DNA of 59,263 nt, filler included. It is 7 parts of 7 records of this genome, joined end to end, with 100 filler letters (N's around TTAATTAATTAA, not from the genome) between each part and the next. Parts side by side here need not be neighbours in the genome. Positions count along the whole stretch, not along the records: positions 44,309 to 52,603 come from SRR31156797_30663; 6 more parts are not named here. One strand, 5' to 3'. This document shows, piece by piece, positions 6,473 to 53,633 of the stretch. The notes beneath the pieces are model-generated. The model worked only from the letters and a program-made list of their open reading frames with translations. It ran no database searches and was not told the origin of the DNA. The position numbers were made by a program, and so were the translations under genes. How positions within the stretch are numbered: the first letter of the stretch is position 1; every line of letters starts with the position of its first letter.

Positions 6473-7737
6473 TGCAAGCTTTACTTGATTGGGTTGAAAA
6501 ACGTTTACCCGCGATGAATGCTTATAAAAAGCATTTATCTGAATACCCGATGCCAAAGAACTTCAACTTTTGGTACCTTTTTGGTTCTTTAGCAATGTTG
6601 GTATTGGTTAACCAGATCCTTACAGGTATTTGGTTGACGATGAACTACGTACCTTCTGGAGAAGGTGCGTTTGCTTCTGTTGAATACATCATGCGTGACG
6701 TAGAGTATGGTTGGTTGCTGCGTTACATGCACTCAACTGGCGCATCTGCGTTCTTTGTTGTGGTTTATCTGCATATGTTCCGTGGTTTAATCTACGGTTC
6801 TTACCAAAAGCCTCGTGAACTACTTTGGTTGTTCGGCATGCTGATTTTCTTAGTGCTGATGGCTGAAGCGTTTATGGGTTACTTGCTACCTTGGGGACAA
6901 ATGTCTTACTGGGGCGCACAGGTAATCATTTCTCTGTTTGGTGCAATCCCTGTTATCGGTGATGATCTTACGCTATGGATTCGTGGTGACTACGTAATCT
7001 CTGGTGCGACGTTAAACCGTTTCTTCGCACTACACGTGATTGCTCTTCCAATCGTACTTCTACTGTTAATCGTGCTGCACATTTTAGCGCTACACGAAGT
7101 GGGTTCTAACAACCCTGATGGTATCGAAACTAAACTGCCAAAAGGCACTATGGGCGACGATTACCAATCTCAGTTCAAGTTCCACGATTACTATTCGAAG
7201 AAATACGACATCATCGACTCGATTCCTTTCCACCCTTACGGAACGGTTAAAGATCTTGTTGGTGTTGCTGGCTTCTTGTTCCTGTTCTCATACGTGTTGT
7301 TCTTCAACCCAGAAATGGGTGGGTACTTCCTTGAGCCGCCTAACTTTGAAGCTGCAAACCCACTGAAAACACCTGAGCATATTGCTCCTGTTTGGTACTT
7401 CACTCCGTTCTACGCGATTCTGCGTGCGGTTCCAGACAAACTTATCGGTGTTATCGCAATGGGTGCATCAATTGTGGTGCTATTCCTACTACCTTGGTTA
7501 GACCGTTGTAAAGTTCGTTCTTACCGCTATCGTAGTAAGCTACACCTGATTAACATTATTCAGTTCACTATTTGCTTTATCGCTTTAGGTATTCTTGGTG
7601 CGTTACCAGCGACGCCAACCTATACCTTACTAGCGCGAATCTTTAGTTTGGGTTACTTCATGTTCTTTGTATTGCTGTTCTTCTACAGTAAAAATGAAGC
7701 AACCAAGCCATTACCAAAGAGGGTGACATTCAAATGA
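6472..7737 (+). CDS. petB: Cytochrome b of the bc1 complex
   Basis: GWLLRYMHSTGAS, FMGYLLPWGQMSYWG and PVWY (PEWY-equivalent) motifs. Confidence 0.98.
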   Translation: MQALLDWVEKRLPAMNAYKKHLSEYPMPKNFNFWYLFGSLAMLVLVNQILTGIWLTMNYVPSGEGAFASVEYIMRDVEYGWLLRYMHSTGASAFFVVVYLHMFRGLIYGSYQKPRELLWLFGMLIFLVLMAEAFMGYLLPWGQMSYWGAQVIISLFGAIPVIGDDLTLWIRGDYVISGATLNRFFALHVIALPIVLLLLIVLHILALHEVGSNNPDGIETKLPKGTMGDDYQSQFKFHDYYSKKYDIIDSIPFHPYGTVKDLVGVAGFLFLFSYVLFFNPEMGGYFLEPPNFEAANPLKTPEHIAPVWYFTPFYAILRAVPDKLIGVIAMGASIVVLFLLPWLDRCKVRSYRYRSKLHLINIIQFTICFIALGILGALPATPTYTLLARIFSLGYFMFFVLLFFYSKNEATKPLPKRVTFK

Positions 7738-8471
7738 AAAAGTGGATTGTAATTTTGTTTGCTATGTTGCCATCACTGGTGATGGCAGCAGGTGGAAACG
7801 TACATTTAGATAAAGCGGAAAATGACTTAACTGACACAGCTTCATTACAACGTGGTGCCAAGTTGTTCATGAACTACTGTTTCGGTTGTCACTCAACACA
7901 ATACCAACGCTATGGCCGTGTTGCTGATGATTTAGGTATTCCTGCTGACCTGATGAAAGAGAATCTGATTTTTGATCCTCAAACCAAAATTGGTTCTTTG
8001 ATGGAAAATGCGATTCCTGACAAATCAGCGGCGAAATGGTTTGGTGCTCCACCTCCAGATCTAACACTGGTGGCTCGTGTTCGTGGTACTGACTGGCTTT
8101 ATACTTATCTGCGTTCTTTCTATGCGGATCCAAGTCGTCCATTTGGTGTGAACAACATTGTTTTCCCAAGTGTTGGTATGCCACACGTGCTTGAAGAACT
8201 TCAAGGCATTCCTGAGCCAGTCTATGACACTCACATCGTGGATGGTAAAGAAGTTCAAGTGGTTGTTGGTGTTAAGTCTCAAGGTAACGGTGAGATGAGT
8301 ACTGGCGAGTATGACCAAGCGGTTTTAGATTTGGTTAACTTCCTAGAGTACTCTGGCGAACCTGTGAAACTTGAACGTCAAGCTATGGGCTGGTGGGTAT
8401 TCGCATTCTTAGTGCTATTAACGATTGTCGTCGTGGCACTGAAGAAAGAATATTGGCGTGATGTGCACTAA
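7734..8471 (+). CDS. petC: Cytochrome c1
   Basis: Signal peptide, CFGCH heme motif, PPDL motif, C-terminal TM. Confidence 0.97.
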   Translation: MKKWIVILFAMLPSLVMAAGGNVHLDKAENDLTDTASLQRGAKLFMNYCFGCHSTQYQRYGRVADDLGIPADLMKENLIFDPQTKIGSLMENAIPDKSAAKWFGAPPPDLTLVARVRGTDWLYTYLRSFYADPSRPFGVNNIVFPSVGMPHVLEELQGIPEPVYDTHIVDGKEVQVVVGVKSQGNGEMSTGEYDQAVLDLVNFLEYSGEPVKLERQAMGWWVFAFLVLLTIVVVALKKEYWRDVH

Positions 8472-8512
8472 TTGTGCTATTATGTCGTGCTAAATCCTAG
8501 TATTTAATTCTG

Positions 8513-8541
8513 CAATGGGGGCTTAGCCTCCATTGTTTTTT
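8513..8541 (+). terminator. Hairpin terminator after petC
   Basis: CAATGGGGGC-TTA-GCCTCCATTG followed by a T run. Confidence 0.7.
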
Positions 8542-8576
8542 GTGTCTGTGTAAGTGTAAGTGTGCTGGAGGGCTCC

Positions 8577-9212
8577 ATGGCTGTAGCTGCCAATAAACGT
8601 TCTGTGATGACTCTATTCTCAAGTGCATCTGATATGTATAGCCATCAGGTTCGTATTGTGCTGGCTGAAAAAGGTGTCAGTGTTGAAGTTGAGTTGGTTG
8701 ATGAAGAAAATCTACCGGCTGAACTTGTTGAGCTAAACCCATATAAATCAGTTCCAACTTTAGTTGATCGTGAGCTTGCGCTTTATGATTCAAAAATCAT
8801 CATGGAATACCTTGATGAGCGTTTTCCACATCCACCATTGATGCCAGTTTACCCAGTAGCTCGTGGTAATAGTCGTTTAATGATCTATCGTATTGAGACG
8901 AATTGGTATTCTCTTGCGAAAAAAATTGTAAACGGTAAAACTGAAGAAGCTGAGTCTGCGCGTAATAAACTGCGTAATGATTTGTTAACTCTAGCGCCTG
9001 TTTTTGCTGAGTACGAATACTTCATGAGCGAAGAGTTCAGCCTGATTGATTGCTACTTAGCACCACTATTATGGCGTTTACCTGTATTGGGTATTGAACT
9101 TGTAGGCCCTGGTTCAAAAGAGCTTAAAGTTTACATGAATCGTGTATTTGAGCGTGATTCATTCCTAGCTTCTTTAACTGAAGCAGAGCGCGAGATGCGT
9201 CTTGCTCGTTAA
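8577..9212 (+). CDS. sspA: Stringent starvation protein A
   Basis: MAVAANKRSVMTLFS, GST fold, FPHPPLMPVYP motif. Confidence 0.98.
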   Translation: MAVAANKRSVMTLFSSASDMYSHQVRIVLAEKGVSVEVELVDEENLPAELVELNPYKSVPTLVDRELALYDSKIIMEYLDERFPHPPLMPVYPVARGNSRLMIYRIETNWYSLAKKIVNGKTEEAESARNKLRNDLLTLAPVFAEYEYFMSEEFSLIDCYLAPLLWRLPVLGIELVGPGSKELKVYMNRVFERDSFLASLTEAEREMRLAR

Positions 9213-9224
9213 TGGTTGTTTTTG

Positions 9225-9692
9225 ATGGATATTGATCAAATGACACCTCGCCGACCATTTATGCTACGTGCATTTTATGATTGGTTGCTAGAAAATGATT
9301 TAACGCCTCATCTTGTCGTTGATGCAACTATGCCGAGTGTACGAGTTCCGATGGAATATGTACAAGACGGTCAAATTATTCTTAACGTGGCACCTCGTGC
9401 GGTAGGAAACCTAGAGCTGGGTAATGATGAAGTTACTTTTAATGCTCGTTTTGGTGGTCGCCCTCAGGTTGTGATTGTTCCTTTGTACGCGGTTCAAGCG
9501 ATCTATGCTCGAGAGAACGGCGCAGGGACAATGTTTGATCCAGAGCCTGCTTACGAGCAAGATTTCGAATCAGATATCGCGATCGAAGATATTGATACTA
9601 CAGATGTTGAACAACAGCCATCTTCTGTTGATACATCAGATGATGAGCCAGCACGACCTAAAGGTAAGCCAAGTTTACGAGTGGTTAAATAA
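9225..9692 (+). CDS. sspB: ClpXP specificity-enhancing factor SspB
   Basis: RAFYDWLLENDLTPHLVVDA and the C-terminal LRVVK ClpX-docking motif. Confidence 0.97.
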   Translation: MDIDQMTPRRPFMLRAFYDWLLENDLTPHLVVDATMPSVRVPMEYVQDGQIILNVAPRAVGNLELGNDEVTFNARFGGRPQVVIVPLYAVQAIYARENGAGTMFDPEPAYEQDFESDIAIEDIDTTDVEQQPSSVDTSDDEPARPKGKPSLRVVK

Positions 9693-9693
9693 C

Positions 9694-9721
9694 AAAAAGC
9701 AGCGGAAACGCTGCTTTTTTT
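9694..9721. terminator. Bidirectional terminator between sspB and dolP
   Basis: AAAAAGCAGCG-GAAA-CGCTGCTTTTT between convergent genes. Confidence 0.85.
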
Positions 9722-9771
9722 GTATCTGCGATAAGTGATTATCGCTTTAGCTCTCGGTGAGGAAAGGTCTA

Positions 9772-10341
9772 TCAATCGCCGTATTCAAATGCCCGAATAA
9801 CCTGTTTAACACCCGAAATATTACGAGCTATCTCTGTGGCCTTATCGGCATGCTCGCGTGAAACGTATCCAAACAGGAACACTTCTTTATTCTCGGTGAC
9901 GACTTTGATCTTAGTGCCGTTGAGGTCAGAGTTCGAAAGCAACGCAGATTTTACTTTGGTCGTTATCCAGCTGTCATTGCTAATCGCACTAACAGCAAGT
10001 GGCTCCATAATTTTGACTTGGTTATGAAACTCTTTAACGCCTTTAACCTTCTCTGCTTGGGCGATGAACTGATCGAGTAGCTGAGTATTTTTTGATTGCC
10101 CCATCAGAACCACTGTTCCATCATAGGAGCTGGCAACAAAGCGAGCAGAACCACGGTAAGGTGGTTTGTTACCGATCCCAGCAACTTCAAACTCTATCTG
10201 GTTGTCAGTCCAAATTTGCTGGGTTGTCCTTGGGTCAGTGACTAAGTTTGCGGTTGTTGCCGCACCTGCTATGAACAACCCAGCACAGCCAGATAAGCTC
10301 ATAGCCGCAGACAAAATTAAGCCGAGACGGAAAGACTTCAT
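9772..10341 (-). CDS. dolP: Dual BON-domain lipoprotein (DolP/YraP)
   Basis: Lipobox LSGC, BON motif DSWITTKVKSALL; yraM-P operon position; start moved to MKSFRLG. Confidence 0.88.
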   Translation of the reverse strand: MKSFRLGLILSAAMSLSGCAGLFIAGAATTANLVTDPRTTQQIWTDNQIEFEVAGIGNKPPYRGSARFVASSYDGTVVLMGQSKNTQLLDQFIAQAEKVKGVKEFHNQVKIMEPLAVSAISNDSWITTKVKSALLSNSDLNGTKIKVVTENKEVFLFGYVSREHADKATEIARNISGVKQVIRAFEYGD

Positions 10342-10357
10342 AACAAACCTTCTACTA

Positions 10358-10951
<594 letters not shown>

Positions 10952-11335
10952 TTATCCTTCGGTAATAGCGTTTTTTATCCACTCAATGTGATGGCCATCA
11001 TTGTGGATAGCAATCACATCAAATCTAAAATCAGTTGCGTCGGTATTTAAACCTCGCTTGAGCATCCACCAATTCGCAGCTTTGATCAAGCGCTGCTGCT
11101 TTTGCCGAGTGACCGTTTCTGCGGCATGGCCATAACTCTGAGTTTTACGGTATTTTACTTCGACAAAGACGATGCTGGAACCATCTCGCATGACTAAATC
11201 CAGTTCACCACCTTTGGCGATAAAGTTTTTTTCAATCAGTTTCAGTCCGCGGCATTGTAAATAGTCCGCCGCGGTTTGTTCATAAAACTGACCTTTACTC
11301 CGCTGACTGAGTTTGTTCAACTTGTTCAGTAGCAC
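10952..11335 (-). CDS. yraN: YraN family (UPF0102) putative endonuclease
   Basis: GELDLVM..FVEVKYR and RFDVIAI motifs; start uncertain (GTG at 11335 overlaps the lpoA end). Confidence 0.9.
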   Translation of the reverse strand: MLLNKLNKLSQRSKGQFYEQTAADYLQCRGLKLIEKNFIAKGGELDLVMRDGSSIVFVEVKYRKTQSYGHAAETVTRQKQQRLIKAANWWMLKRGLNTDATDFRFDVIAIHNDGHHIEWIKNAITEG

Positions 11336-13136
11336 CGTGTTCTGCCCAGCTAATCTCACGTTGTACAACACATTGGTCGTCAATACTTAAAACGCCAGTT
11401 TGACCTTCAACCGTATAACCTTCGACGACTTTCATTTGCGGAAGTTCCACCATTAGCTGATAAGCATCCATACCTAGAGCTTGCAGGCGGCGTTCACCGT
11501 TAGAATCTTTCGGCCATAAATGCTCCATTTGCTCGACAATTTCAGGTTGAGGATGGATAAGTAGTGGAATATCACTATAGGTTACGCCAGTTAAGTCTTC
11601 GTACTGACGACCACCACTATTGCTTTTCGAATTTGAGTAAAGCTTAGGTGGTGTTGTGTCTGGGTTAATCGCGACTTCAATAAACGGTTTGATCAGAGTC
11701 AGTTCAGCGCTGCTTGCCACAATATAGACCGAATCGATATCACGGCGGCTACGCGGTTGACTCTCTAAATTAATATTGAGCAGCGATTCCATTTGAGCGA
11801 TGTTCTGTTGGCTGTCTTGTAAGCCAAAGACATTGTTGATGTTACGTTGCAGTTGACGTTTGTCACCAAACAGATTCACAGCAACTTTATTGCTACTGTA
11901 CTTACGCCATTCTTCATTGAATGCATCAACAACACGCTCGCCGTAGTTACTTTGCGGAGCAAGGATTAATGGGTATTGGAAGCCTTGAGATGCAAGGTAT
12001 TTAGCCGCTTGAGCCACTTCTTGTTCTGGTGAAAGCGTTAAGTAGCAAACATCTGAACCTTCGATTAACTCATCAGGGATATTCAGCGCTAACATAGGAA
12101 TGCTTTGCCCTGCATCGCTCTGAATTTGTTGCAGTTGTTCGATTTGCTCTTTTACCAGCGGGCCAACAACGAAATCGATATTTTTCTCTGCAAGCTCTCT
12201 ATTGATCGCTTCTAATGAGTCGGCATTGGTATCAAGGATGGTTAGGCTCGCATTGGGATCGCGGTCCTCATCATTCATCATTGCCATAATGAAACCATCG
12301 CGAATCAGCTGTGCTTGCTTATCAAACTTACCACTTAGAGGCAGCAGTAGCGCCGTATCTTTGGGTTGGATAATGGTCATATCCAAAATGTCGCTGATCG
12401 CTTTTGGCGTGTACATGGCTGCAGGGTGACTTGGATTTTCAGCCAACCAATTTTCTAAACTGTTCTTCAACTGAGGAACGTCATTAGCCAACGTTTTTAC
12501 GTAGATAGCCAATTGCAACCAGCCATCAAGTATTTCTTCTTCTGGCGCCGTTGTCAGTTGAGTAATCGTTTGGCTGGAATATCGTTGTAAGTTGCTCCAG
12601 ATTTGATCAGAAAGCGCTTCGTGTTGCTGCTCTGGAGTAAATTTATAAAGTGCCGCTAGCTCTCTGCTTGATTCAAAAGGACGATCGAGAGCAGTGAAAA
12701 TATCTGCTCTTAGTTGGTGATAGTCATTCCACTGAGAATCAGCCAATACCCAAGCAGCATTAAAGTTCAGTTTGCTTAATGCTTGAGAGTATTGTTCAAC
12801 GTTAAACGCCAGTTGGGCTCTGGCAAGTTGCCATTCCGCTTGTTGCGACTCATTAAGGTTCTGCTTCGATAAGCGATAAATCAGAAGTTCAGCTTGGTCA
12901 GTGTTATTGCTCGCAATCGCGGCTTTCATGGCCATAATCAGCCAGTCGTTTTGCAAGCTGCCTTGGCTGCTGTCAGCTTTCATCAGATAAGTTTGAGTGG
13001 GCTGCTGTGGTTCGCCTGTAATATCAACATATTCCGGTGATGAAGGTTTAGACGAACAAGCTGCCAATGTGATTGCTAGTGCAACTGGAGCGAGTAAGCG
13101 TGGTACACTGCTTCTCTTATGGTTATTTTTAGCCAT
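11295..13136 (-). CDS. lpoA: Penicillin-binding protein activator LpoA
   Basis: Lipobox LAAC, ALLLPLSG, VVGPLVK, PRSRRDID and RLQALGMDAY motifs; divergent from rsmI. Confidence 0.95.
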   Translation of the reverse strand: MAKNNHKRSSVPRLLAPVALAITLAACSSKPSSPEYVDITGEPQQPTQTYLMKADSSQGSLQNDWLIMAMKAAIASNNTDQAELLIYRLSKQNLNESQQAEWQLARAQLAFNVEQYSQALSKLNFNAAWVLADSQWNDYHQLRADIFTALDRPFESSRELAALYKFTPEQQHEALSDQIWSNLQRYSSQTITQLTTAPEEEILDGWLQLAIYVKTLANDVPQLKNSLENWLAENPSHPAAMYTPKAISDILDMTIIQPKDTALLLPLSGKFDKQAQLIRDGFIMAMMNDEDRDPNASLTILDTNADSLEAINRELAEKNIDFVVGPLVKEQIEQLQQIQSDAGQSIPMLALNIPDELIEGSDVCYLTLSPEQEVAQAAKYLASQGFQYPLILAPQSNYGERVVDAFNEEWRKYSSNKVAVNLFGDKRQLQRNINNVFGLQDSQQNIAQMESLLNINLESQPRSRRDIDSVYIVASSAELTLIKPFIEVAINPDTTPPKLYSNSKSNSGGRQYEDLTGVTYSDIPLLIHPQPEIVEQMEHLWPKDSNGERRLQALGMDAYQLMVELPQMKVVEGYTVEGQTGVLSIDDQCVVQREISWAEHGATEQVEQTQSAE

Positions 13137-14410: not shown

Positions 14411-14510
14411 NNNNNNNNNNNNNNNNNNNNNNNNNNNNNNNNNNNNNNNNNNNNTTAATTAATTAANNNNNNNNNNNNNNNNNNNNNNNNNNNNNNNNNN
14501 NNNNNNNNNN
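14411..14510. other. Artificial contig spacer
   Basis: N run with a central TTAATTAATTAA (stop in all six frames). Confidence 0.99.
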
Positions 14511-44208: not shown

Positions 44209-44308
44209 NNNNNNNNNNNNNNNNNNNNNNNNNNNNNNNNNNNNNNNNNNNNTTAATTAATTAANNNNNNNNNNNNNNNNNNNNNNNNNNNNNNNNNNNN
44301 NNNNNNNN
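44209..44308. other. Artificial contig spacer
   Basis: N run with a central TTAATTAATTAA. Confidence 0.99.
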
Positions 44309-44309
44309 C

Positions 44310-44390
44310 GGCGGGCACCACAAAACGACGCCAGATTGTAGGTTCGATATCAAGCAGCTTAATTTTCAGTAGATAAAATCGTTCATTCAT
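44310..44390 (-). CDS. N-terminus of a plasmid pRiA4b ORF-3-like protein (cut by the contig edge; absent from the ORF track)
   Basis: Manual translation MNERFYLLKIKLLDIEPTIWRRFVVPA; GAGG Shine-Dalgarno upstream. Confidence 0.75.
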
Positions 44391-44469
44391 TTTTATACCT
44401 CATATGATTCTTTGAGTCTGTCGGTCTTCAGAATATTCTCCACCTCATTGGCTAAGACTTCATCAAAAG

Positions 44470-45567
44470 TCATAGCGTCGATTTTTCGGTTGAGACAGGA
44501 TGAAACAGACCTGCACGGTGACAGCCCTCAAGAAAGGCTTTTTTAAGGAAACGCTTTTCAATATAGGGATCTTTTTTGCAGTGAAGTTCAAGCCTGCTCA
44601 GATAGCAGCCGGGGTCACCACCCAGATGTTTCCACTCATCGAACACTTCGGTCAACCATGCTTTCCCTGCGCCTTTAGAGCTGCATTCAACCCTGTACCG
44701 TTCATCTATGCCGTACAGGTCGTTCCATGTGTCGATTTCCTGGGCCACCGTCTCAGGTCCGTATTCAATGGCAATATGATCTGGGACAAGGTCTTCCCAA
44801 TCCATTGTATTCAAGGTGACAGACAACTCTATAGCATTGTTTTTTCCTGCAAAAGGGAAAAACACTTTTCTCGGCGTTTTCAGCGGATCTTTCGCCAGTT
44901 TATAGCTGCTGTTGCAATGAGGACAGGCAGGCACCAGGTTTAAAAAGTTGATACTGTTAAACGGGTATTTGTCCTTTGGGAAATAGTGGTCGTAGGCGTC
45001 CCGTTTGCTGTGATACCGATTGAGGATTCCTGAAAGACCGCAAAACGGACAGACATCCCTGTCGTTTTTTTGTGTGAATTTGTCATTGTGCTCATCAATG
45101 GCGCCAATACGTTCCTGAACAGATTTTAAGGTTAAAAAACTGTGTGAGTAGAGGTTTTTATAAAATCGCTTCAACGCTTTGATCAGGCCTGGAAACTGCT
45201 CTTCCGGGAAGGTGGTTTCAATACAATCATAGGTGGCTGGCCGGCATTGATCCCCGTGTTCACACAGTTGCCGGATATCGTTGTTCAGGGCAAACCAGTC
45301 TTTAAACTGCTGTTTTTGTCCAGCATCAAGCATTTTGAACGATTCAAACAACACCTGCAAGGGTTCCATAAAATTATCAGCGGATTTATTTTCCTGATAA
45401 TGAAGTTCCCGGATCATCTCTTTGAGTTCCGGCATACCCGAAAACAGGGTCTCTATATCGTAAGGTTTTCCCGGTACCGCTTTGCACCATACCTCTTCAA
45501 AAATATAACCCACATAGTGGTGCATGATCTCCATGGGGTGCGGGGTATAGCGGTAGGGAAACAGCAT
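44470..45567 (-). CDS. HNH endonuclease (PtuB-like), coupled to the upstream ATPase
   Basis: CPFCG..DHYFPKDKYP..NLVPACPHCN zinc-binding HNH motif; start overlaps the ATPase stop (TGATG). Confidence 0.88.
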   Translation of the reverse strand: MLFPYRYTPHPMEIMHHYVGYIFEEVWCKAVPGKPYDIETLFSGMPELKEMIRELHYQENKSADNFMEPLQVLFESFKMLDAGQKQQFKDWFALNNDIRQLCEHGDQCRPATYDCIETTFPEEQFPGLIKALKRFYKNLYSHSFLTLKSVQERIGAIDEHNDKFTQKNDRDVCPFCGLSGILNRYHSKRDAYDHYFPKDKYPFNSINFLNLVPACPHCNSSYKLAKDPLKTPRKVFFPFAGKNNAIELSVTLNTMDWEDLVPDHIAIEYGPETVAQEIDTWNDLYGIDERYRVECSSKGAGKAWLTEVFDEWKHLGGDPGCYLSRLELHCKKDPYIEKRFLKKAFLEGCHRAGLFHPVSTEKSTL

Positions 45568-47381
45568 CAGTCCGTCTCTTTGCCTGAGTCTTCGATCGTC
45601 TTCATCAGCAACATTTTTTCCACCGAATCACCGAGCCTGCGGTCAATCCGCCGGAGTAGATCATCTGTATCCACTCCGCCTTTTTTGAACTCCTCACGGA
45701 AACCGTTTAACAGGTGTTGTGCATAACCGCCGATGGTTTCGCGTTTATCAAAGGTTTCAATGGTGATCCGGTTAATGGAAGCCCCAAGGGTATTGTAGTC
45801 GGGATGGGAGATCGAAATACCTCCTGTCTCTCGGTTTTTATCAAAGACCAGTACCTTATGACGTTCGCTGTCGGATACCAGGAACGGTGCATGGGTCGTT
45901 ATCAGCATTTCCCGGTCTTTGTCCTTGCCTTCATGGAAACAGTCTCTGAGCCGGCTGATGAAGTTGGCCCGCCAGGCCGGGTTGAAGTGAGTTTCCGGTT
46001 CATCCAGAAGAAAGAGGCTGTTGGTATCTTTAAACAGCAGGCACAGCCCCAGGCTGTGCAATAGCTGGTGTTCACCGTCAGACAGATCCTTGAGCATCAC
46101 AGACGAGTTGATCCCGTTTTTTTCAAACCGGACAAACTTGAACCGCATGATGCGTTCATCACTGGCAAGAACCGGAACCGTTTCACTCACATAGTGGCTG
46201 TTGGACTGGTAGAGGTCGGCTTTGAGGCTTTCGCTTACCGAATAGAGGTTGAGGGTAAGCAACACCTGAAATGCATGAAACAGATCAATGGACGAATCGA
46301 AATTCTGTTTGAAGGCTTGTTTTGTATGCGCGTTGACGCAGTAATCCAGATAGAGCGTATCTGTGGATTCATCGGTAAAATAGCAGGTGGCACAGCGTTT
46401 CAGACGTGTGACCGGCGGATCAAAGCCTTTTGCAGAATCCTGATCCGCCTCCAGCAGATCCACCAGATTTAAGGTATAGGTGCCTGCGTCGCTGTCGATG
46501 AACACTGCCGGGTGATCATTGCCAAACCCCTCAGCCTGTTCGGCACTGATGTGAATGGACCGCTTGATGATAATGCGGAACTCCTGGAGATCCCCAAGCC
46601 CCATATCCGTCTGAAACGGTTTCAGGGTATCTCCATCATGGTACAGCAGGTTGCACAGCAAAATCGCCTGACTGAACGATGCATCCATATACGCCATGCG
46701 GGTTTCCGGCTTGCCGGGATAGGGGAGCTGCCCGGCCAGGCTGTGCCGGTATTCATCAAACTGAATAAAGCGCATTTTAAAAAAGGGCAGGCTCAGGATT
46801 TCATTTTCACCCGAGGAATAGCCCAGCACATACTCCGGGAGCAGATCATTTCTCTCATTGGCCCCAACCAGGCCTTTGTTTAATTCCAGACGTCCCAGGG
46901 TATCATCATCAAGGTTAAATTCACTGAAATTGGACCAGACGATTTTCGGGGATTGATCCGGCAGTTTTTGGATTTCAACCTCTGCAAACAGCGGGCTGTT
47001 CGCGTGGCGGGAATACTTTGGTACCGGGATCAGGTAATCCAGCTCAAACCCGTTGGGAAAACCATCCCCCTCCCTGAACCCTTCCGGGTTCTCTTCCTCA
47101 TCATAGATAAAGGCAGAAGGCAGGAAACTGCGGCGGACACGCAGCACTTCCAGTTGAAAAAAAATCGCAGCCAGTGCTTCCAGCAGGTTTGATTTTCCGC
47201 TGCCGTTGGGACCTGCGCAGACAAAGGGGGCAAACCCTTGACCGGGCTTGAAACCGTCCGAAAATTGAGTTTCGCCAAGCTCATCCTGCAGGGTCCACTC
47301 ACTTCGAAAGCGATACTCAAACCCCGGCTGCAAACTTCGAAAACCCCTGGGATCCGTAATTTTTAAACGTATCAGTTTCAT
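45567..47381 (-). CDS. Restriction-system-associated ABC/AAA_21-type ATPase (PtuA-like)
   Basis: Walker A GPNGSGKS, signature LSDGEHQ, Walker B LLDEPETHFNP, H-loop ITTHAP; no TM segments. Confidence 0.9.
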   Translation of the reverse strand: MKLIRLKITDPRGFRSLQPGFEYRFRSEWTLQDELGETQFSDGFKPGQGFAPFVCAGPNGSGKSNLLEALAAIFFQLEVLRVRRSFLPSAFIYDEEENPEGFREGDGFPNGFELDYLIPVPKYSRHANSPLFAEVEIQKLPDQSPKIVWSNFSEFNLDDDTLGRLELNKGLVGANERNDLLPEYVLGYSSGENEILSLPFFKMRFIQFDEYRHSLAGQLPYPGKPETRMAYMDASFSQAILLCNLLYHDGDTLKPFQTDMGLGDLQEFRIIIKRSIHISAEQAEGFGNDHPAVFIDSDAGTYTLNLVDLLEADQDSAKGFDPPVTRLKRCATCYFTDESTDTLYLDYCVNAHTKQAFKQNFDSSIDLFHAFQVLLTLNLYSVSESLKADLYQSNSHYVSETVPVLASDERIMRFKFVRFEKNGINSSVMLKDLSDGEHQLLHSLGLCLLFKDTNSLFLLDEPETHFNPAWRANFISRLRDCFHEGKDKDREMLITTHAPFLVSDSERHKVLVFDKNRETGGISISHPDYNTLGASINRITIETFDKRETIGGYAQHLLNGFREEFKKGGVDTDDLLRRIDRRLGDSVEKMLLMKTIEDSGKETD

Positions 47382-47392
47382 CCGTACCCGGC

Positions 47393-49051
47393 CTATGCGT
47401 TTTTCAGTATAATGGTATTGCCCAGCTCTTGCTTATCACCCATGTCTATGGAATTTCGGTTCTGCTCAATTCTGCCGCTGCGGATCTGATCAAAGACCCA
47501 CGCTTTGAGATGGTCATAGTCGTTGATGCCAAGCACCGGTTCTGCTCCTTCCTCGCCTTGTTCACTCAGCATCGCCTCACGGTCCAGTTCATCCAGTTTT
47601 TGCTGTGCTTCTTTCATGAATGAATCGACTGAAAAGGCGGCATCCCTACCTGACCACTGAAGGTATTCTTCCAGCCATTTCCGCAGGATCGGCTTGCGAC
47701 CTTCGGCGCTGGATAAGGCCATTCTCTGTTTCTGATCCGGTGCGGAGAACTCGAATCGCTTTTTATGTTTCGGTAAAACACTTTCAGGCTCTGTTTTGAC
47801 AGGTTCTTTATCGGCCTCGTCCGGTTCAACTGGCATCGGTACCCGCGATAGATCCAGTTCGCCTTTGAAGGCTTTTTGGCTGAGGGTTCCGTAGAGATTT
47901 TCCAGATCGGTAAGACTCTGTTGGTATTGGGTTTTGATGCCTTCGACTTTTCCGACGATGGTTGCGAATTTATTCTGGAATTCTATTGGGGGAATAATTG
48001 CCGGAAAATTCTTAAGCTGTGTTGAATTTATTGAGGCTATTCCGGTTGTTTGCTTTGCAGATTTTAAAAAATATCTTTTTCCATACTGTGAAGCAACTAA
48101 TGCGCTGAGATAATATGGATTTATTATCTTTCTATTTTTTATCCGTACACGAAATATATGGTTTTGGTGTATGCATTTTTTTACTTGATTTTCCCAAACT
48201 GATCCGCGTCCAAGCTTATCTGGGTCTCCCCCCTCTGTAAGCAATAAATCACCTTTTTCCAATTGATATCGATTAATATCTTGTTTGCTTACGGCAATAG
48301 TTTTAATTTCATCTAAATCAAAGTACCCATCCTGCACATTTGCAACTCGCATATAAGGAACCTCAATTAATTCTTTGTCTTTGTATTTTTTGCCTTTAGT
48401 AACCCCTGATATTATATCTGTTTGTATTGATAATTTCTCACTTACCCATTTGTTATAAGTACCATCAATAAATCCAAACATCTCCAAAAACACACTTTTA
48501 AGCAGTTCATCCAGTTGTTGCAGGTGGTGTTTGCGCCGGGCGATCAGGGCTCCTACTTTGCTCAGCAAATGGGCGATGCGGATTTGGTCGTTGAGGGGTG
48601 GGAGGGGGATTATCACCCTTTTTACCAAACTACTGTTAAGATTGTTAACTACACCGCCAACGGCGAATTTCTTAAACTGGGCATAGATGTTTGGCGAACC
48701 AAGCATGTAGCAAAGAAATGTTTTGTCAAAATTATTCTTTAGGTCGCGAATCAATAACCATCCGTCATGAATGCAACCTTCAATTTTAAGAATGTAAGGA
48801 CGTCCAAAACTCATCGAATTTGACAATATCAAATCTCCAGCATATACCTGCCGTGATTTATTTCTCCCCTCGGGCTTAATTTTCTCTTTGGTTTTGGTTA
48901 TATAGATTGAATCGTTATTTGCGTCTCCAATTTTAATCCAGTTTATTCCAGATTTCTCTTCCGTTATATAATTCTTAATTGGTCGAGGAGAACCTCCACG
49001 GGCAATTTCACAAACATCACCAAGTTTTACAGTTTTCCATCCTTGTTTCAC
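47393..49051 (-). CDS. hsdS: Type I R-M specificity subunit with a C-terminal extension of about 150 aa
   Basis: Two TRDs each followed by conserved helices (PLPPLNDQIRIA, PPIEFQNKF..AFKGEL); overlaps the hsdM stop. Confidence 0.95.
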   Translation of the reverse strand: MKQGWKTVKLGDVCEIARGGSPRPIKNYITEEKSGINWIKIGDANNDSIYITKTKEKIKPEGRNKSRQVYAGDLILSNSMSFGRPYILKIEGCIHDGWLLIRDLKNNFDKTFLCYMLGSPNIYAQFKKFAVGGVVNNLNSSLVKRVIIPLPPLNDQIRIAHLLSKVGALIARRKHHLQQLDELLKSVFLEMFGFIDGTYNKWVSEKLSIQTDIISGVTKGKKYKDKELIEVPYMRVANVQDGYFDLDEIKTIAVSKQDINRYQLEKGDLLLTEGGDPDKLGRGSVWENQVKKCIHQNHIFRVRIKNRKIINPYYLSALVASQYGKRYFLKSAKQTTGIASINSTQLKNFPAIIPPIEFQNKFATIVGKVEGIKTQYQQSLTDLENLYGTLSQKAFKGELDLSRVPMPVEPDEADKEPVKTEPESVLPKHKKRFEFSAPDQKQRMALSSAEGRKPILRKWLEEYLQWSGRDAAFSVDSFMKEAQQKLDELDREAMLSEQGEEGAEPVLGINDYDHLKAWVFDQIRSGRIEQNRNSIDMGDKQELGNTIILKNA

Positions 49052-50736
49052 CCTATCATCCCCCGCAACGCCAGCAACTCCTTAACAATCCCACCGTCAA
49101 CCTTCGTCAGTACATCTACATCCGCAGCCCCCACTTCTGCTTTGATCAGGCGATCCAGAATCACGGACGGCGCATCGTATTCAATCTCTTCAAACACCTC
49201 CTCTTTGTATCGGCTGAAGCTTAAGTCATAGCCTTCCTTTTGGATCTCTTCACGGGGTACGGCAAACCAGTTCTGTGTTCTGTCCCATTTGGCGGTGTTG
49301 TCACGGGCATGGAATTTTTCCACAATATCTTGAAGATCCCCGAAGCCCTCTTTTTTGGTGCGCTTGTCATCCAGGGAATAGCCGTCGTCGGTCATGTTGT
49401 AAAACCAGACCTGTTTTGTGGCGGGTTTGGTGACCTTGTCTTTTGGCCCCCAGACTTTGGTAAAAACAAGAATGGCCGTGGCAACACCGGCATAGGGTTT
49501 AAACACCCCGCTGGGCATGGCGATCACGGCTTTGAGGTCGCAGCGGTCGAGTAGGATCTGCCGGACCGTTTTAAAGGCCTTGCCGCTGCCGAAGAGCACG
49601 CCCTGGGGGATGATCACACCGGCGGTGCCGCCTTTTTTCAGGAGGTGATAGATATTTTCCAGAAACAAGAGTTCCGATTTGGTGGTGCCTGCCTGGAACC
49701 GCTCGTTGATGTCCCCCTTGTCCACACTGCCGGTAAAGGGCGGGTTGGCCATCACAATGTCGTAACAGGCTTCCTCATCAAAACTTTTGCTGAGGGTGTC
49801 CTTATAGTCGAGTTGGGGTTCATCAATGCCGTGCATCATCAGGTTCATCAGACCCAGGCGGACCATGGTGCCGTCAATATCAAAACCGAACAGGGAGGTG
49901 TCGAGAACGGCCTGGGCTTCTGCGCTCAGGGCGGCGGCAACTGAGGTTCGGACAAAACCGTCGTCGTCCGGTTGTAGCTCTTGTAACCTATCTTTTGACT
50001 CCATGTGGGTCACCACATATTGATAGGCACCCAGCAAAAAACCGGCAGTTCCGCAGGCCGGATCGCAGATTCTGTGTCCAAGCTTTGGCTGTACCAGTTC
50101 AGCCATGAGCTTGATGATATGGCGGGGTGTTCGGAACTGGCCGTTTTTACCGGCACTGGCGATTTCCGACAGCAGATGTTCGTATACATCCCCTTGGATG
50201 TCCTGAAACTTATCCTCATCTTTCTCCATGATGGTGTAAATCTCATCAATGGTTTTGACCGCTTCCACCAGAAGCGAGGGTTTGGGGATAATAAAGACGG
50301 CATTTTTCATATGGTGGGTGAATTTGGATTCGGTGCCGTTCATGTCCTTTAAAAACGGAAACACCTTGCCCTGCACATGGGAGAGCATATCCTCCGCCTG
50401 CATGTGCTTGAATTCCTTCCAGCGAAGGGTATTTCGGTCTATTGCGTATTTATCTGACACTTCAATTTTTTTCTTTTGTTCGGCCTCGGAATCGGTATCG
50501 AGTATTTTCGGGCGATATTCAGGAGGTATCCATGTGCCCTCAAACTTGGATGTGTAGGGTTCGTCTGTCCATTCGGCATCAGACTGCTTTTTGAGATCCT
50601 GCTCATCCAGCCGTTTCATGAACAGCAGATAGGTGATCTGTTCAATGGCTGTGAGGGGGTTTGATATGCCGCCTGCCCAGAATTTGTTCCAGAGCTGGCC
50701 GATCTTGCTTTTCAGTTCTGCATTGTGTTGCAGCAT
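49048..50736 (-). CDS. hsdM: Type I R-M N6-adenine methyltransferase
   Basis: GQFRTP, motif I DPACGTAGFL, motif IV NPPF, VFKPYAGV; start moved to MLQHN. Confidence 0.97.
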   Translation of the reverse strand: MLQHNAELKSKIGQLWNKFWAGGISNPLTAIEQITYLLFMKRLDEQDLKKQSDAEWTDEPYTSKFEGTWIPPEYRPKILDTDSEAEQKKKIEVSDKYAIDRNTLRWKEFKHMQAEDMLSHVQGKVFPFLKDMNGTESKFTHHMKNAVFIIPKPSLLVEAVKTIDEIYTIMEKDEDKFQDIQGDVYEHLLSEIASAGKNGQFRTPRHIIKLMAELVQPKLGHRICDPACGTAGFLLGAYQYVVTHMESKDRLQELQPDDDGFVRTSVAAALSAEAQAVLDTSLFGFDIDGTMVRLGLMNLMMHGIDEPQLDYKDTLSKSFDEEACYDIVMANPPFTGSVDKGDINERFQAGTTKSELLFLENIYHLLKKGGTAGVIIPQGVLFGSGKAFKTVRQILLDRCDLKAVIAMPSGVFKPYAGVATAILVFTKVWGPKDKVTKPATKQVWFYNMTDDGYSLDDKRTKKEGFGDLQDIVEKFHARDNTAKWDRTQNWFAVPREEIQKEGYDLSFSRYKEEVFEEIEYDAPSVILDRLIKAEVGAADVDVLTKVDGGIVKELLALRGMIG

Positions 50737-50743
50737 TGCTTTG

Positions 50744-50835
50744 TCCTTTTTCAACCACGGAAAACACGGAATTCACGGAAGGGTTAAAAAGTTATAAATT
50801 AACATTCCGTGCCATCCGTGTTTTCCGTGGTTTAT
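50744..50835. repeat. Palindromic repeat unit 1 (28-bp arms built from CACGGA subunits)
   Basis: AACCACGGAAAACACGGAATTCACGGAA (50753-50780) pairs with TTCCGTGCCATCCGTGTTTTCCGTGGTT (50805-50832), 25 of 28. Confidence 0.92.
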
Positions 50836-51215
50836 AAAATTAGCCTGTCAATCTGTACTTTCGGGTGGCTGCCGAAGTTGATCAGCAGGCCCAGCCTCAG
50901 ACCGGTCGCCTTCAAATAATTCAATACCTGTGCTTTATGCTCCGGGGCAACGGCTTTCACCGCTTTCAGTTCGACAATAATCGTTTCATAACAAATCAGG
51001 TCCGGCTTATATGTCTGCCGTAGCTGTTTGCCCTTATAATTCAATGTCAATTCCGGTTGAGATACAAAGGGAATGCCCTTTGAGGAAAGCTCGTTTTCAA
51101 GGCACTCCTGGTACACGGGTTCTAAAAAGCCTGAACCCATCTCTCTGTATACCTCGAAGACAGCACCTCTTATGGCAAAGCTCTCTTGCTCAAACAGCAA
51201 TTGACCCATTTCCAT
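50832..51215 (-). CDS. GxxExxY family protein (PD-(D/E)xK nuclease fold)
   Basis: GFLEPVY motif, PDL..IIVELKAV catalytic motif, QVLNYLK and GLLINFG. Confidence 0.95.
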   Translation of the reverse strand: MEMGQLLFEQESFAIRGAVFEVYREMGSGFLEPVYQECLENELSSKGIPFVSQPELTLNYKGKQLRQTYKPDLICYETIIVELKAVKAVAPEHKAQVLNYLKATGLRLGLLINFGSHPKVQIDRLIL

Positions 51216-51219
51216 TTTT

Positions 51220-51297
51220 TCCTTTTTTCAACCACGGAAGACACGGAAGATGTTTCAATAAAATAATTCCGTGTTTTCCGTGTCTTCCGTGGTTTAT
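51220..51297. repeat. Palindromic repeat unit 2 (perfect 19-bp arms)
   Basis: AACCACGGAAGACACGGAA (51230-51248) pairs with TTCCGTGTCTTCCGTGGTT (51276-51294), plus an extra TTCCGTG subunit. Confidence 0.92.
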
Positions 51298-51333
51298 TAT
51301 TTTAACGGCACCGGCCTCCAGTCCGTTGTTCAA

Positions 51334-52602
51334 TTATGCAACAAGCCTTTGGGTCAGCGACAGGATTTCATTGATCTCAGCCGGGCTGAATACGCCCCGG
51401 ATGCCCTGGGGATGTATCACGGTAAACGGTGCATGGATCAGATCTTTCTTTTCAATGGCTTCCCGTTCAATCATCACCTCTTTCAACAGATTTAAAAATG
51501 CCAGTTGCCGGCTGCTGAGGGTGGTGTGCTGCTGAATGAACTGTTCAAACGCCTCACTGACGGTTTCAGGAAAACTTTTCAGCACTTCAAGGCCCAAAAT
51601 ATGACGAATGAACTGGATAAAGCGTGCCTTTTTGTTCTTATATACCTGCCGCAACAATCCTTCAGTGATATGCGGATGCTCTGAATGAAGTTGCTCCGCC
51701 AGCGCTTGGGCTTCTTGTGCAGTGACCTCCTTGCCGTTTTGTAATTTCTGAAGTATTGGATGGCTGACCGTAAGTTCCATAATCAGTGCTTCCACCATGT
51801 CACGATAACGGGAAATGCTCACCGCTTCATGCTGTGGGCCGAATTCCACCATCTCCTTGTTGTGCAGTTTATCAGCAAGATTGAGGTGGACTTGGTTTGC
51901 GCCGGGGTTTTCCCGTTCACGAAATTTCATTAAAGGGCCGAGCTTGTCACACAGGGAATCCAGATCATGGTCACTGATACTGCTCCAGTAATGATTGCCC
52001 TGGGCAGATCGTATCAGGCTTTCCTCCAGTTTGACAAAGGGAACACTAAGCGGAAGTTCACGGATCTGTTCGACGATACCTGTTTTTAAGGTTTCTGCCT
52101 TTATCGTTTCTTCATTCAGCACAGCCAGTGAGTATTCCAGCAGATCGCGTTCAAAGCGCATGGCTTTAAAATCCGCATCTGAAAAGGTTTTGAACAAGGG
52201 TTTGATATGGGTTCTCAACCAGTGGAGTTTCTCATGGGTCAGGGTGTCCCAGAAAGAGGCTTTTCCAACGTCTGAGAGAAGGGCTGCAGCCTCTTTGACC
52301 ACCACGGAGGTTTGCGGCAACGCACGGATCTGCTCTTTTAGCTTTCCGGCTTCCCTAAGAACGATATCGGGTCTGTTTTGGGTTAATGCGGTTTCAATTT
52401 TATCGATTCTGAATCCAACCAGTTTTACAGGCAACGGCTCTTGGGGTGTAAGCGCTTTGCCCTTTGGGTTCAGTTTGAAGTATTCAAAATTGTCCCAGCA
52501 ATCAATGATCAGAAACAGATCCTTTTGTGTACACCAGGGTTTTAATTTTTTAGGCTCCAGCAAGCGGGTACCGCGACCGATCATCTGCCAGAACTTGGTG
52601 TA
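51334..52602 (-). CDS. hsdR: Type I R-M restriction subunit, C-terminal part (5'-truncated)
   Basis: Helicase motif VI KFWQMIGRGTRL, FLIIDCWDNF and an EcoEI-R-like C-terminus; upstream of hsdM-hsdS. Confidence 0.92.
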   Translation of the reverse strand, partial: YTKFWQMIGRGTRLLEPKKLKPWCTQKDLFLIIDCWDNFEYFKLNPKGKALTPQEPLPVKLVGFRIDKIETALTQNRPDIVLREAGKLKEQIRALPQTSVVVKEAAALLSDVGKASFWDTLTHEKLHWLRTHIKPLFKTFSDADFKAMRFERDLLEYSLAVLNEETIKAETLKTGIVEQIRELPLSVPFVKLEESLIRSAQGNHYWSSISDHDLDSLCDKLGPLMKFRERENPGANQVHLNLADKLHNKEMVEFGPQHEAVSISRYRDMVEALIMELTVSHPILQKLQNGKEVTAQEAQALAEQLHSEHPHITEGLLRQVYKNKKARFIQFIRHILGLEVLKSFPETVSEAFEQFIQQHTTLSSRQLAFLNLLKEVMIEREAIEKKDLIHAPFTVIHPQGIRGVFSPAEINEILSLTQRLVA

Positions 52603-52603
52603 G

Positions 52604-52703
52604 NNNNNNNNNNNNNNNNNNNNNNNNNNNNNNNNNNNNNNNNNNNNTTAATTAATTAANNNNNNNNNNNNNNNNNNNNNNNNNNNNNNNNNNNNNNNNN
52701 NNN
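52604..52703. other. Artificial contig spacer
   Basis: N run with a central TTAATTAATTAA. Confidence 0.99.
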
Positions 52704-53429
52704 CTTCACATCCACCTGTTCTGTAAAGCCTTCCATGCGAAAATTGCTCTGGTGAACCTTCAAAAGCAGGGCCGTGTTGTCGGTTATGGCATTCTCGTAA
52801 TCAGACAGGTGAGTTTTATTGGTGGTTCCGACTTCAACCAGAATGGCGCCGCTTTGGGACATTACATCCGGTATTCTGAACGCCCCGCCGATTTCCACAA
52901 GTTCTCCCCTGGAAACCGGAACCTCAAATCCCCGGGCCAAAGTCCCCAGGGCGATTAGAACCGCTGCCGCGTTATTATTAACGACAAGGGCGGCTTCCGC
53001 TCCGGTAATGTCGCATAACAGGCCTTCCACGTGGCTGTACCTTTCGCCCCGGCGGCCCAGGGCCAGGTCGAATTCAAGATTGCTGTATAAGCGGCCGGCC
53101 GCGTTCACGGCTTCCATGGCCTGGTCGGCCATGAGAGACCGCCCCATATTGGTATGAATCACTACTCCGGCCGCATTGATCACGCGCCTGAAATGAGGCT
53201 GGTTAAGTTCTTGAGCCTTTTTCGCAACCGCCGCGATCAGGTTCGGGTTTTCGAGTTCCGTCTCATTAAAATCTTCCGCCTGTTGAAGAATCCTATGGCG
53301 AACATTGTCGATTGTTTCACGTACGGCCTTAAGCAAAAGCGTCCGGGGAATATTCTCGCCAAGAGAAATAATTTGGGGGGCTTCCAACAATTGATCTACT
53401 TTTGGTAATCGTCGAAGGAGCGACTGCAT
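52704..53429 (-). CDS. selA: L-seryl-tRNA(Sec) selenium transferase, 3'-truncated
   Basis: LPKVDQLL, VINAAGVVIHTNMGR, VVNNNAAAV, SRGELVEIGGAFRIP and EVGTTNKT motifs. Confidence 0.97.
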
Positions 53430-53633
53430 AAAAATCCTCAACCAGGCGCGGGCTTGGTGCAATATCGTTGTATTCTTAAAATATTCAAGATATCCCAATA
53501 CCTAATACTACAGAAACCTGCGGCTTGGCAACTGATTATAAGTTAAGTGCGGCTGTTTGGGCAATTGATGCAACTGTTTGTCTGTTCCGCCCGGGCAAAA
53601 GCCGGGAAGCGGATCGGCTTTAGCCGCCGCAAT

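Follow-up and report, generated by a model that had tools for sequence, protein, structure and literature searches.

The window analysed here, 59,263 nucleotides in total, is a concatenation of at least seven unrelated contigs joined by six linkers (N runs around TTAATTAATTAA) at positions 14455, 26845, 32307, 37816, 44253 and 52648. A single 8.3-kb contig (44309-52603) carries an element that combines a type I restriction-modification (R-M) operon with the genes of an ABC-type ATPase and an HNH nuclease. Its features are given below, starting from the hsdR side; the values quoted from PADLOC are scores of per-protein models, not calls made by system rules.

52604..52703, no strand: artificial linker, the right contig boundary
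51334..52603, minus strand: C-terminal fragment of hsdR, a 416-aa open reading frame (ORF) from 52584, with the frame open to the contig end at 52603 (Pfam EcoEI_R_C, 5.6e-31; PADLOC REase_I, 6.9e-34)
50832..51215, minus strand: small GxxExxY/PDDEXK_3 protein, 127 aa (TIGR04256, 6e-43; PF13366, 1e-42)
49048..50754, minus strand: hsdM, type I N6-adenine methyltransferase subunit, 568 aa (N6_Mtase, 1.9e-60; HsdM_N, 1.4e-17; PADLOC MTase_I, 5.7e-166)
47393..49051, minus strand: hsdS, specificity subunit, 552 aa, with target recognition domain 1 (TRD1), conserved region 1 (CR1), TRD2, CR2 and an extra C-terminal tail (Methylase_S in two stretches; PADLOC Specificity_I, 2.4e-100)
47393..47854, minus strand: C-terminal tail of HsdS, residues 400-552, a linker and a winged-helix-like domain in the AlphaFold2 (AF2) model
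45567..47381, minus strand: ABC-type ATPase of the TIGR04435 family, 604 aa (TIGR04435, 788.5 bits; PADLOC PtuA, 2.5e-49; AAA_21, 5.5e-16)
44470..45567, minus strand: HNH nuclease, 365 aa, with a predicted PtuB-like fold (PADLOC PDC-M62B, 3.1e-17; PDC-M01B, 1.6e-13; PtuB, 2.9e-7)
44209..44308, no strand: artificial linker (N runs around TTAATTAATTAA), the left contig boundary

Both HsdM and HsdS are recognized in the window by their Pfam and PADLOC matches, and the order and common strand of the hsdR-GxxExxY-hsdM-hsdS-ATPase-HNH array proposed in the initial annotation hold, except that hsdR is represented by its C-terminal 416 aa only. This fragment covers positions 696-1092 of 1107 in the PADLOC REase_I profile and ends at the artificial joint, and therefore is cut by the contig end rather than by a mutation; truncation of hsdR by mutation or deletion beside selA is ruled out by the nature of this break. 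Because the linkers separate contigs, neither the LysR gene on the left nor the selA fragment on the right is a true operon neighbour. The tight junctions described previously are all found: the overlap of hsdM and hsdS amounts to 4 nt, the gap from the hsdS stop to the ATPase start is 11 nt long, and the ATPase stop and the HNH start have one base in common (TGATG).

The ATPase and its HNH partner

By its sequence, the ATPase is a clear, full-length member of TIGR04435 (788.5 bits against a cut-off of 300; profile positions 1-566 of 568) and a distant relative of PtuA. The NCBIfam name of this family, "restriction system-associated AAA family ATPase", matches the family to which the initial annotation referred. 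The PADLOC PtuA model PDLC00293 aligns with residues 1-560, and the best sequence matches in the PDB are PtuA chains of retron Ec78/Eco7 (E-value 9.5e-7), limited to residues 454-562 in the C-terminal lobe; E-values for the PtuA chains range from about 1e-6 to 1.6e-3. With the NCBIfam model for retron-type PtuA, NF041760, the ATPase scores 38 bits and so stays below the cut-off of 500. The full ABC motif set that had been reported can be read directly, namely Walker A GPNGSGKS, signature LSDGE, Walker B LLDEPE and H-loop TTH, and is invariant among relatives, the nearest public one being encoded on a Desulfobacterales contig from a metagenome-assembled genome (92% identity). The classification of ABC ATPases by Krishnan et al. 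(2020) may include this ATPase clade.

The HNH protein contains the motifs CPFCG, DH, N..N and CPHCN, in agreement with the previously noted pattern CxxC..DH..N..CxxCN, and its catalytic and zinc-binding residues are invariant in 59 sequences. No Pfam or NCBIfam family scores over its cut-off (Pfam HNH, 16.7 against 21.4), and a PDB sequence search finds nothing up to an E-value of 1. A large protein collection contains 1626 relatives at an E-value of 1e-5 or better, named at most "HNH endonuclease"; the best 120 of these 1626 carry no precomputed Pfam domains. A comparison of the AF2 model (predicted local distance difference test, pLDDT, 85.8) using VIA-align identifies PtuB as each of the four best chains (from retron I-A, Septu, Retron-Eco7 and retron Ec83), followed by a fifth match with a Z score of 4.2:

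9n6b_F: Z 7.8, root-mean-square deviation (rmsd) 5.7, 198 aligned
8ee7_C: Z 7.6, rmsd 4.9, 198 aligned
9kjx_F: Z 7.5, rmsd 5.3, 187 aligned
9e8z_E: Z 5.9, rmsd 4.2, 184 aligned

A Foldseek search of the PDB with the same model returns nothing at an E-value of 0.001 or better, so that the relation to PtuB is visible with VIA-align only. The protein also contains extra helical elements beyond the PtuB-like fold. The PtuA model score and the four PtuB matches are in accord with the earlier view of the pair as Septu/PtuAB-like, and by models and sequences together ATPase and HNH are a distant, enlarged Septu-type pair. As in Septu, an ABC ATPase gene is followed by an overlapping HNH nuclease gene; unlike in Septu, the HNH protein is 365 aa long compared with roughly 210-234 aa for PtuB chains, the sequence relation to solved PtuA is weak (E-value about 1e-6, C-terminal lobe only), and the pair is tied to hsdS rather than standing alone. 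The two models of PDC-M62, one of the PADLOC candidates that stem from the preprint of Payne et al. 2024, give 3.6e-14 (PDC-M62A) and 3.1e-17 (PDC-M62B); that preprint mined BREX, DISARM and type I R-M loci for embedded genes and lists 145 untested candidates.

Linkage to hsdS and the HsdS tail

The survey of close relatives included one genome per species and yielded 42 loci from at least nine phyla, with ATPase identity of 42-92%; their neighbourhoods were typed by tblastn with the proteins of the operon. The hsdS gene lies immediately 5' of the ATPase gene in 41 of the 42 loci, and, wherever the contig does not end first, an HNH homologue lies immediately 3' of it (40 of 40). The hsdM gene (product 64-77% identical) is found in 39 loci and the hsdR C-terminus in 31; among the 11 loci without the latter, 10 have at most about 950 nt of contig upstream of hsdM/hsdS. 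Of 38 loci, 19 have overlapping hsdS and ATPase genes, and in 32 the two are no more than 14 nt apart; one base is common to the ATPase and HNH genes in 31 of 39. The flanking DNA beyond the cassette varies from locus to locus. The GxxExxY gene is an optional insert between hsdR and hsdM that tblastn detects in three of the 42 relatives (L003, L025 and L030). The hsdS-ATPase-HNH order is also kept in 13 further loci, the most distant of which have an ATPase at 26-32% identity, with HsdM as low as 27-36%. The divergent members (G157, G084, G812, G808, three plasmids from Bacillota, Alphaproteobacteria and Bacteroidota, and others) range from 27 to 59% in HsdM identity, with up to 73% in one piece of the frameshifted hsdM of G808. 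Overall, hsdS is directly upstream of the ATPase gene in 54 of the 55 loci with context, and RefSeq annotates ATPase relatives next to hsdS with the TIGR04435 family name. The initial annotation had named homologues located mostly away from hsd genes as the finding that would speak against it; the neighbourhoods show the opposite.

The TIGR04435 family is widespread though rare. Among species genomes sampled around a chosen centre genome in three phyla, it scores over the cut-off in 3 of 401 Pseudomonadota (centre genome included), in 1 of 351 genomes in the phylum of G003, a Maridesulfovibrio (the centre genome only), and in 5 of 351 Cyanobacteria (centre genome included). The occurrence of nearly identical cassettes in different orders of Pseudomonadota suggests that the cassette moves as one piece, and in Escherichia coli the cassette is located on integrative conjugative elements (ICEs). 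The setting, mobile, patchily distributed and with defence genes around, is of the defence-island type. In 23 complete cassettes, HsdR and HsdM have a mean pairwise identity of 0.81, against 0.63 for the ATPase. The HNH protein diverges much faster, with a value of 0.52, and its distances correlate more closely with those of HsdM (r 0.59) than with those of the ATPase (r 0.35). The ATPase and HsdM trees are broadly alike, but the resolution of the HsdM tree is low (4 of 20 branches starred), and for this reason no strict co-phylogeny is claimed.

The conservation profile of HsdS indicates that the protein extends about 150 residues past the second conserved region. In the AF2 model of this tail (pLDDT 82), about 30 disordered, acidic and proline-rich residues (the linker, below 50) are followed by a confidently predicted helical domain with a terminal beta hairpin; the structural matches are generic winged-helix domains with Z scores of 5-6.2. 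The tail belongs to no Pfam family, and the best scores in an ESM Atlas look-up, 0.81 and 0.79, are below the meaningful level. A survey of the HsdM clade at 68-77% identity in metagenomes included 80 loci, 56 of them informative, in which presence of the tail was scored by an alignment criterion:

ATPase present (36 loci): tail present in 34, absent in 2
ATPase absent (20 loci): tail present in 4, absent in 16

The tail thus co-occurs with the ATPase (Fisher p 1.5e-8, with no phylogenetic correction). In the two ATPase loci scored as tail-less, HsdS is even longer (663 and 692 aa), with a divergent tail that matches the tail profile weakly, and its frame runs up to the ATPase gene; with these two counted, 36 of 36 ATPase cassettes have a tail. 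That profile matches 2 of the 401 Pseudomonadota genomes, both with a close-clade ATPase and with the match just upstream of it. A sister cassette in G034, of the same hsdR/hsdM clade (HsdM 74-76% identical), has no ATPase and encodes a tail-less HsdS of 410 aa. At the divergent loci linked to the ATPase, every HsdS is long (497-635 aa). Tail and ATPase distances are correlated (Mantel r 0.73; partial r 0.67 controlling for HsdM), compared with r of 0.33 for the HsdS core and the ATPase, 0.31 for the tail and the HNH protein, and 0.35 for the equally adjacent ATPase and HNH protein. Complex prediction for the ATPase with HsdS residues 400-552 gives scores of 0.79, 0.79 and 0.77, and one unrelated control reaches 0.64; the result is therefore non-specific and counts neither for nor against binding.

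The HsdR proteins of relatives are complete (932-936 aa, with HSDR_N, ResIII, Helicase_C and EcoEI_R_C domains), and their nuclease motif D...EAK is invariant in 23 relatives, by which a role of the HNH protein as a substitute for a dead HsdR nuclease is ruled out. Given that the active sites of the ATPase, the HNH protein and HsdR are all invariant, both layers are kept. Within the clade of the operon, hsdR is found in 68 of 69 informative metagenome loci and in 31 of 31 genome loci with sufficient upstream DNA; it is nearly always present with an invariant motif, so that the pair normally comes on top of a working restriction enzyme and does not take its place.

In five independent contexts, the cassette lacks an adjacent hsdR. 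In E. coli JS316 (L171), the order is hsdM-hsdS(tail)-ATPase-HNH, with no hsdR within 9 kb. Of 5426 complete E. coli genomes, 85 carry this 6.1-kb cassette with an identity of at least 99%, and only 10 have a same-clade hsdR at 80% coverage or more. In JS316, the one of the 85 carriers in which the flanks were inspected, the cassette sits between a broken yeeJ and conjugation genes, with an ArdC gene nearby; in E. coli A36, an ICE carries all five genes. No ResIII gene is encoded anywhere on the Priestia and Hymenobacter plasmids, and L181 and L055 have no adjacent hsdR. The ATPase and HNH frames are intact in the hsdR-less forms except in L055, where the ATPase is split. The latter locus (G084, 7353-12986), located beside guaB/guaA, has the order hsdS-ATPase-HNH-hsdM, an ATPase in two frames and a short hsdM (405 aa), and by its sequence is probably a decaying copy.

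Possible modes of coupling to the restriction system

Two features, an hsdS-ATPase-HNH order that is near-obligate even at deep divergence and a tail that tracks the ATPase, favour physical integration over co-transport alone. The occurrence of the tail with the ATPase suggests that the integration of the R-M system with the ATPase-HNH pair is real; the tail is proposed, from its model, to be the docking domain for the ATPase, and physical coupling seems likely on the strength of the genomic evidence. The tentatively preferred reading, to which a probability of roughly 0.42 is assigned, is that of a tethered second-layer effector pair regulated by the R-M complex. The operon is of type I R-M, with an HsdR containing an EcoEI-type C-terminal domain, and carries a dedicated Septu-type pair; in this reading the pair, co-translated with HsdS, would be docked on the methyltransferase/restriction complex via the winged-helix domain on the flexible HsdS linker. 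The R-M complex would play toward the pair the part that reverse transcriptase and multicopy single-stranded DNA (msDNA) play toward PtuAB in type I-A retrons, holding and regulating the ATPase-nuclease, and the second layer would fire once restriction is blocked or overrun; the target of the nuclease might be DNA or, as for retron PtuAB, tRNA. What the sequences show directly is the gene content, the families of the proteins, the near-obligate linkage and the way the tail co-occurs and co-varies with the ATPase; that the tail binds the ATPase and that the R-M complex silences the pair we infer, as we do its trigger and its substrate. A more far-reaching formulation appears doubtful: the tail would dock the Septu-type pair into the methyltransferase core, the R-M complex, which reads sequence and methylation, would act as sensor or antitoxin for a nuclease of the abortive or second-strike kind, in an R-M analogue of type I-A retrons, and the hsdR-less M-S-ATPase-HNH forms (in 85 E. 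coli genomes, two plasmids and a cyanobacterium) would constitute a previously unrecognized R-M class in which ATPase and HNH replace the HsdR motor-nuclease.

The closest mechanistic model is provided by the type I-A retrons (Ec78/Eco7 and Ec83), in which a Septu-type pair is attached to a second machine that sequesters and regulates it; retron Ec78 is reported to co-opt PtuAB by physical sequestration, retron PtuA having gained extra elements for partner binding. The present system, in contrast, has no reverse transcriptase or non-coding RNA; the part of the partner would fall to the type I R-M complex, which itself bears the additional element, the HsdS tail. That guarding of restriction is a real strategy is shown by PrrC/EcoprrI and PARIS: PrrC is reported to be embedded in a type IC locus and to fire when Stp inhibits EcoprrI, and a 2025 review names PrrC and PARIS among R-M guardians. 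PrrC/EcoprrI resembles the present system in linking an ABC-type ATPase effector to type I R-M, whereas in PrrC/RloC the anticodon nuclease is a C-terminal domain of the ATPase polypeptide itself and the nuclease here is a separate HNH protein; PrrC models are absent from the best 25 of 108 PADLOC matches. PARIS has a TOPRIM partner, AriB, and is not tied to hsdS, whereas the partner here is an HNH protein, and the AriA models match only residues 406-514 of the ATPase (5.9e-16).

Part of this picture is already known: the ATPase family and its association with restriction genes are catalogued, and the general idea that embedded ABC-ATPase systems are back-ups of R-M is outlined in the preprint of Payne et al. 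2024. The HsdS C-terminal linker and winged-helix domain that accompany the ATPase are new here. A literature search, with the supplements of Payne 2024 and Krishnan et al. 2020 lying outside it, found no paper for the TIGR04435 accession or family name, no published mechanism and no description of the cassette, the HNH partner or the HsdS tail; a paper on a Marinomonas type I R-M system mentions neither ATPase nor HNH.

Several observations weigh against regulation of a tethered pair by the R-M complex. At L042, the ATPase-HNH pair has no hsd gene within 10 kb. Four loci in the metagenome survey have the tail without the ATPase and resemble cassettes ending right after hsdS. The tails of the most divergent loci are missed by the tail profile, and in hhalign comparisons three of five divergent tails give weak in-register matches at the extreme C-terminus (E-values 3e-4, 1.2e-3 and 0.034) and two of five none. 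The Mantel signal is even along the ATPase and so may reflect shared history or block co-inheritance rather than contact, and the winged helix predicted in the tail may bind DNA instead of protein. In sister cassettes of the same HsdM clade that lack the tail, unrelated defence cargo occupies the slot after hsdS, which therefore is a general cargo site. To these are added the five contexts without an adjacent hsdR and the precedent of MADS, in which methylation readers are wired to ABC ATPase-nuclease modules.

The last two points keep in serious contention an alternative in which, as in MADS, an M2S complex reads methylation and the HsdS tail brings ATPase-HNH to unmodified DNA, the pair being an auxiliary or alternative restriction module instead of a guard; the hsdR-less M-S-ATPase-HNH forms would then be self-contained R-M systems. 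The ATPase and HNH frames that stay intact in all these forms but L055 are consistent with this scheme, and the evidence on the tail fits it as well as it fits a guarded pair. MADS itself, a methylation-based system, likewise combines in one operon HsdM-like and HsdS-like proteins with ABC ATPase-nuclease effector modules, but consists of eight genes, with a TOPRIM nuclease (MAD4) and no HsdR among the predicted components listed; the scores of the MADS equivalogs are far under the cut-offs (MAD2, 119 against 720 bits; MAD3, 24.8 against 420; MAD5, 58.6 against 400). Moreover, hsdR with its invariant nuclease motif is nearly universal in the clade of the operon, the 85 near-identical E. coli copies amount to one recent event and so say little on selection, and hsdR may sit elsewhere in the hsdR-less genomes, G084 having 11 ResIII matches; we consider this scheme less probable than the tethered effector. 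The same lower probability, in our estimate, falls to the view that the pair is an independent Septu-like system that rides the 3' cargo slot of a mobile R-M operon for co-transfer and co-expression. The operon is indeed a cargo carrier, as seen from the other known defence modules in the same slot of sister cassettes, the RhuM, Fic, Bro-N, YhcG, XisHI, Schlafen/AlbA_2 and Abi_2 inserts, and the location on ICEs in E. coli, so that linkage alone would not prove coupling; L042 is a stand-alone pair, and the Septu-like PDC-M01/SthRAP-11 is reported to defend alone in Streptococcus thermophilus. The self-contained two-gene form is, however, limited to this one locus of 55, whereas the 2024 preprint, which gives this as its example of a system that works independently, reports only 0.7% of Septu systems to be embedded in Hma; furthermore, the linkage to hsdS outlasts divergence of the ATPase to 26-31% identity and a change of HsdM clade, and the presence of the HsdS tail follows that of the ATPase. 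A role outside defence that serves the R-M system itself, such as addiction or post-segregational killing, restriction alleviation or repair of restriction damage, seems very improbable: ABC/SMC-type ATPases with nucleases also work in DNA repair, and hsdS linkage by itself does not specify defence, but by profile and fold the pair is closest to proteins of defence systems (PtuA/PtuB and the PADLOC defence-embedded candidates) and the setting is that of a defence island.

To our knowledge, many defence genes lie inside R-M operons, and PrrC is almost the sole case of known physical and functional coupling. The ATPase-HNH/hsdS family would offer a second case beside PrrC, with the tail that tracks the ATPase as a concrete handle on the coupling. 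Septu-type modules would then have been co-opted by different partners, by retrons there and by R-M here. The question posed is whether the restriction complex is a sensor, a tether or a guide for a Septu-type nuclease, and native E. coli copies with and without hsdR put it within reach of ordinary tests in laboratory strains.

Other genes in related operons and at the contig ends

The slot behind hsdS in cassettes without the ATPase is occupied by diverse genes. L098 (10888-15426) has an OLD-TOPRIM ATPase and a UvrD helicase (Gabija-like), the set overlapping hsdS by 4 nt, and then a PIN protein; in L089 (11678-17505), a reverse-transcriptase protein of 1012 aa is accompanied by DUF5655/NucS and PIN proteins, and L159 (11240-14423) has HepT-like and AbiEii proteins, in all three right after a short tail-less hsdS. 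The slot of the G034 cassette holds a reverse-transcriptase set. Single-gene inserts between hsdR and hsdM or between hsdM and hsdS (L005, L009, L012, L015, L018, L023, L030 and L034) are of the types RhuM, RhuM-Fic, Bro-N, YhcG/DUF1016 nuclease, XisH+XisI, Schlafen AlbA_2-HTH and Abi_2, and the GxxExxY gene of the operon studied here occupies one of these insert slots. Among the divergent cassettes, L054 (6471-7379) contains a gene for a DUF4357/RAMA-like protein between hsdM and hsdS, and L057 (4710-6427) genes for an 8xMP membrane protein and a GIY-YIG nuclease in the same place.

On the contig under study, the operon may extend past the HNH gene. The HNH stop overlaps (ATGA) with a 26-codon ORF on the minus strand, within 44309-44473. 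Beginning 3 nt beyond this ORF, a pRiA4b-ORF3-like gene, potentially a seventh gene of the operon by sequence, runs off the contig; its first 27 residues match Pfam PRiA4_ORF3 with an E-value of 1.1e-4 and 22.4 bits, under the cut-off. Any feature of the window that spans a linker joint brings together false neighbours. Across the right linker lies the N-terminal part of selA (52704-53498, minus strand; TIGR00474, 340 bits, profile positions 1-235 of 455), which is cut by the end of its own contig.

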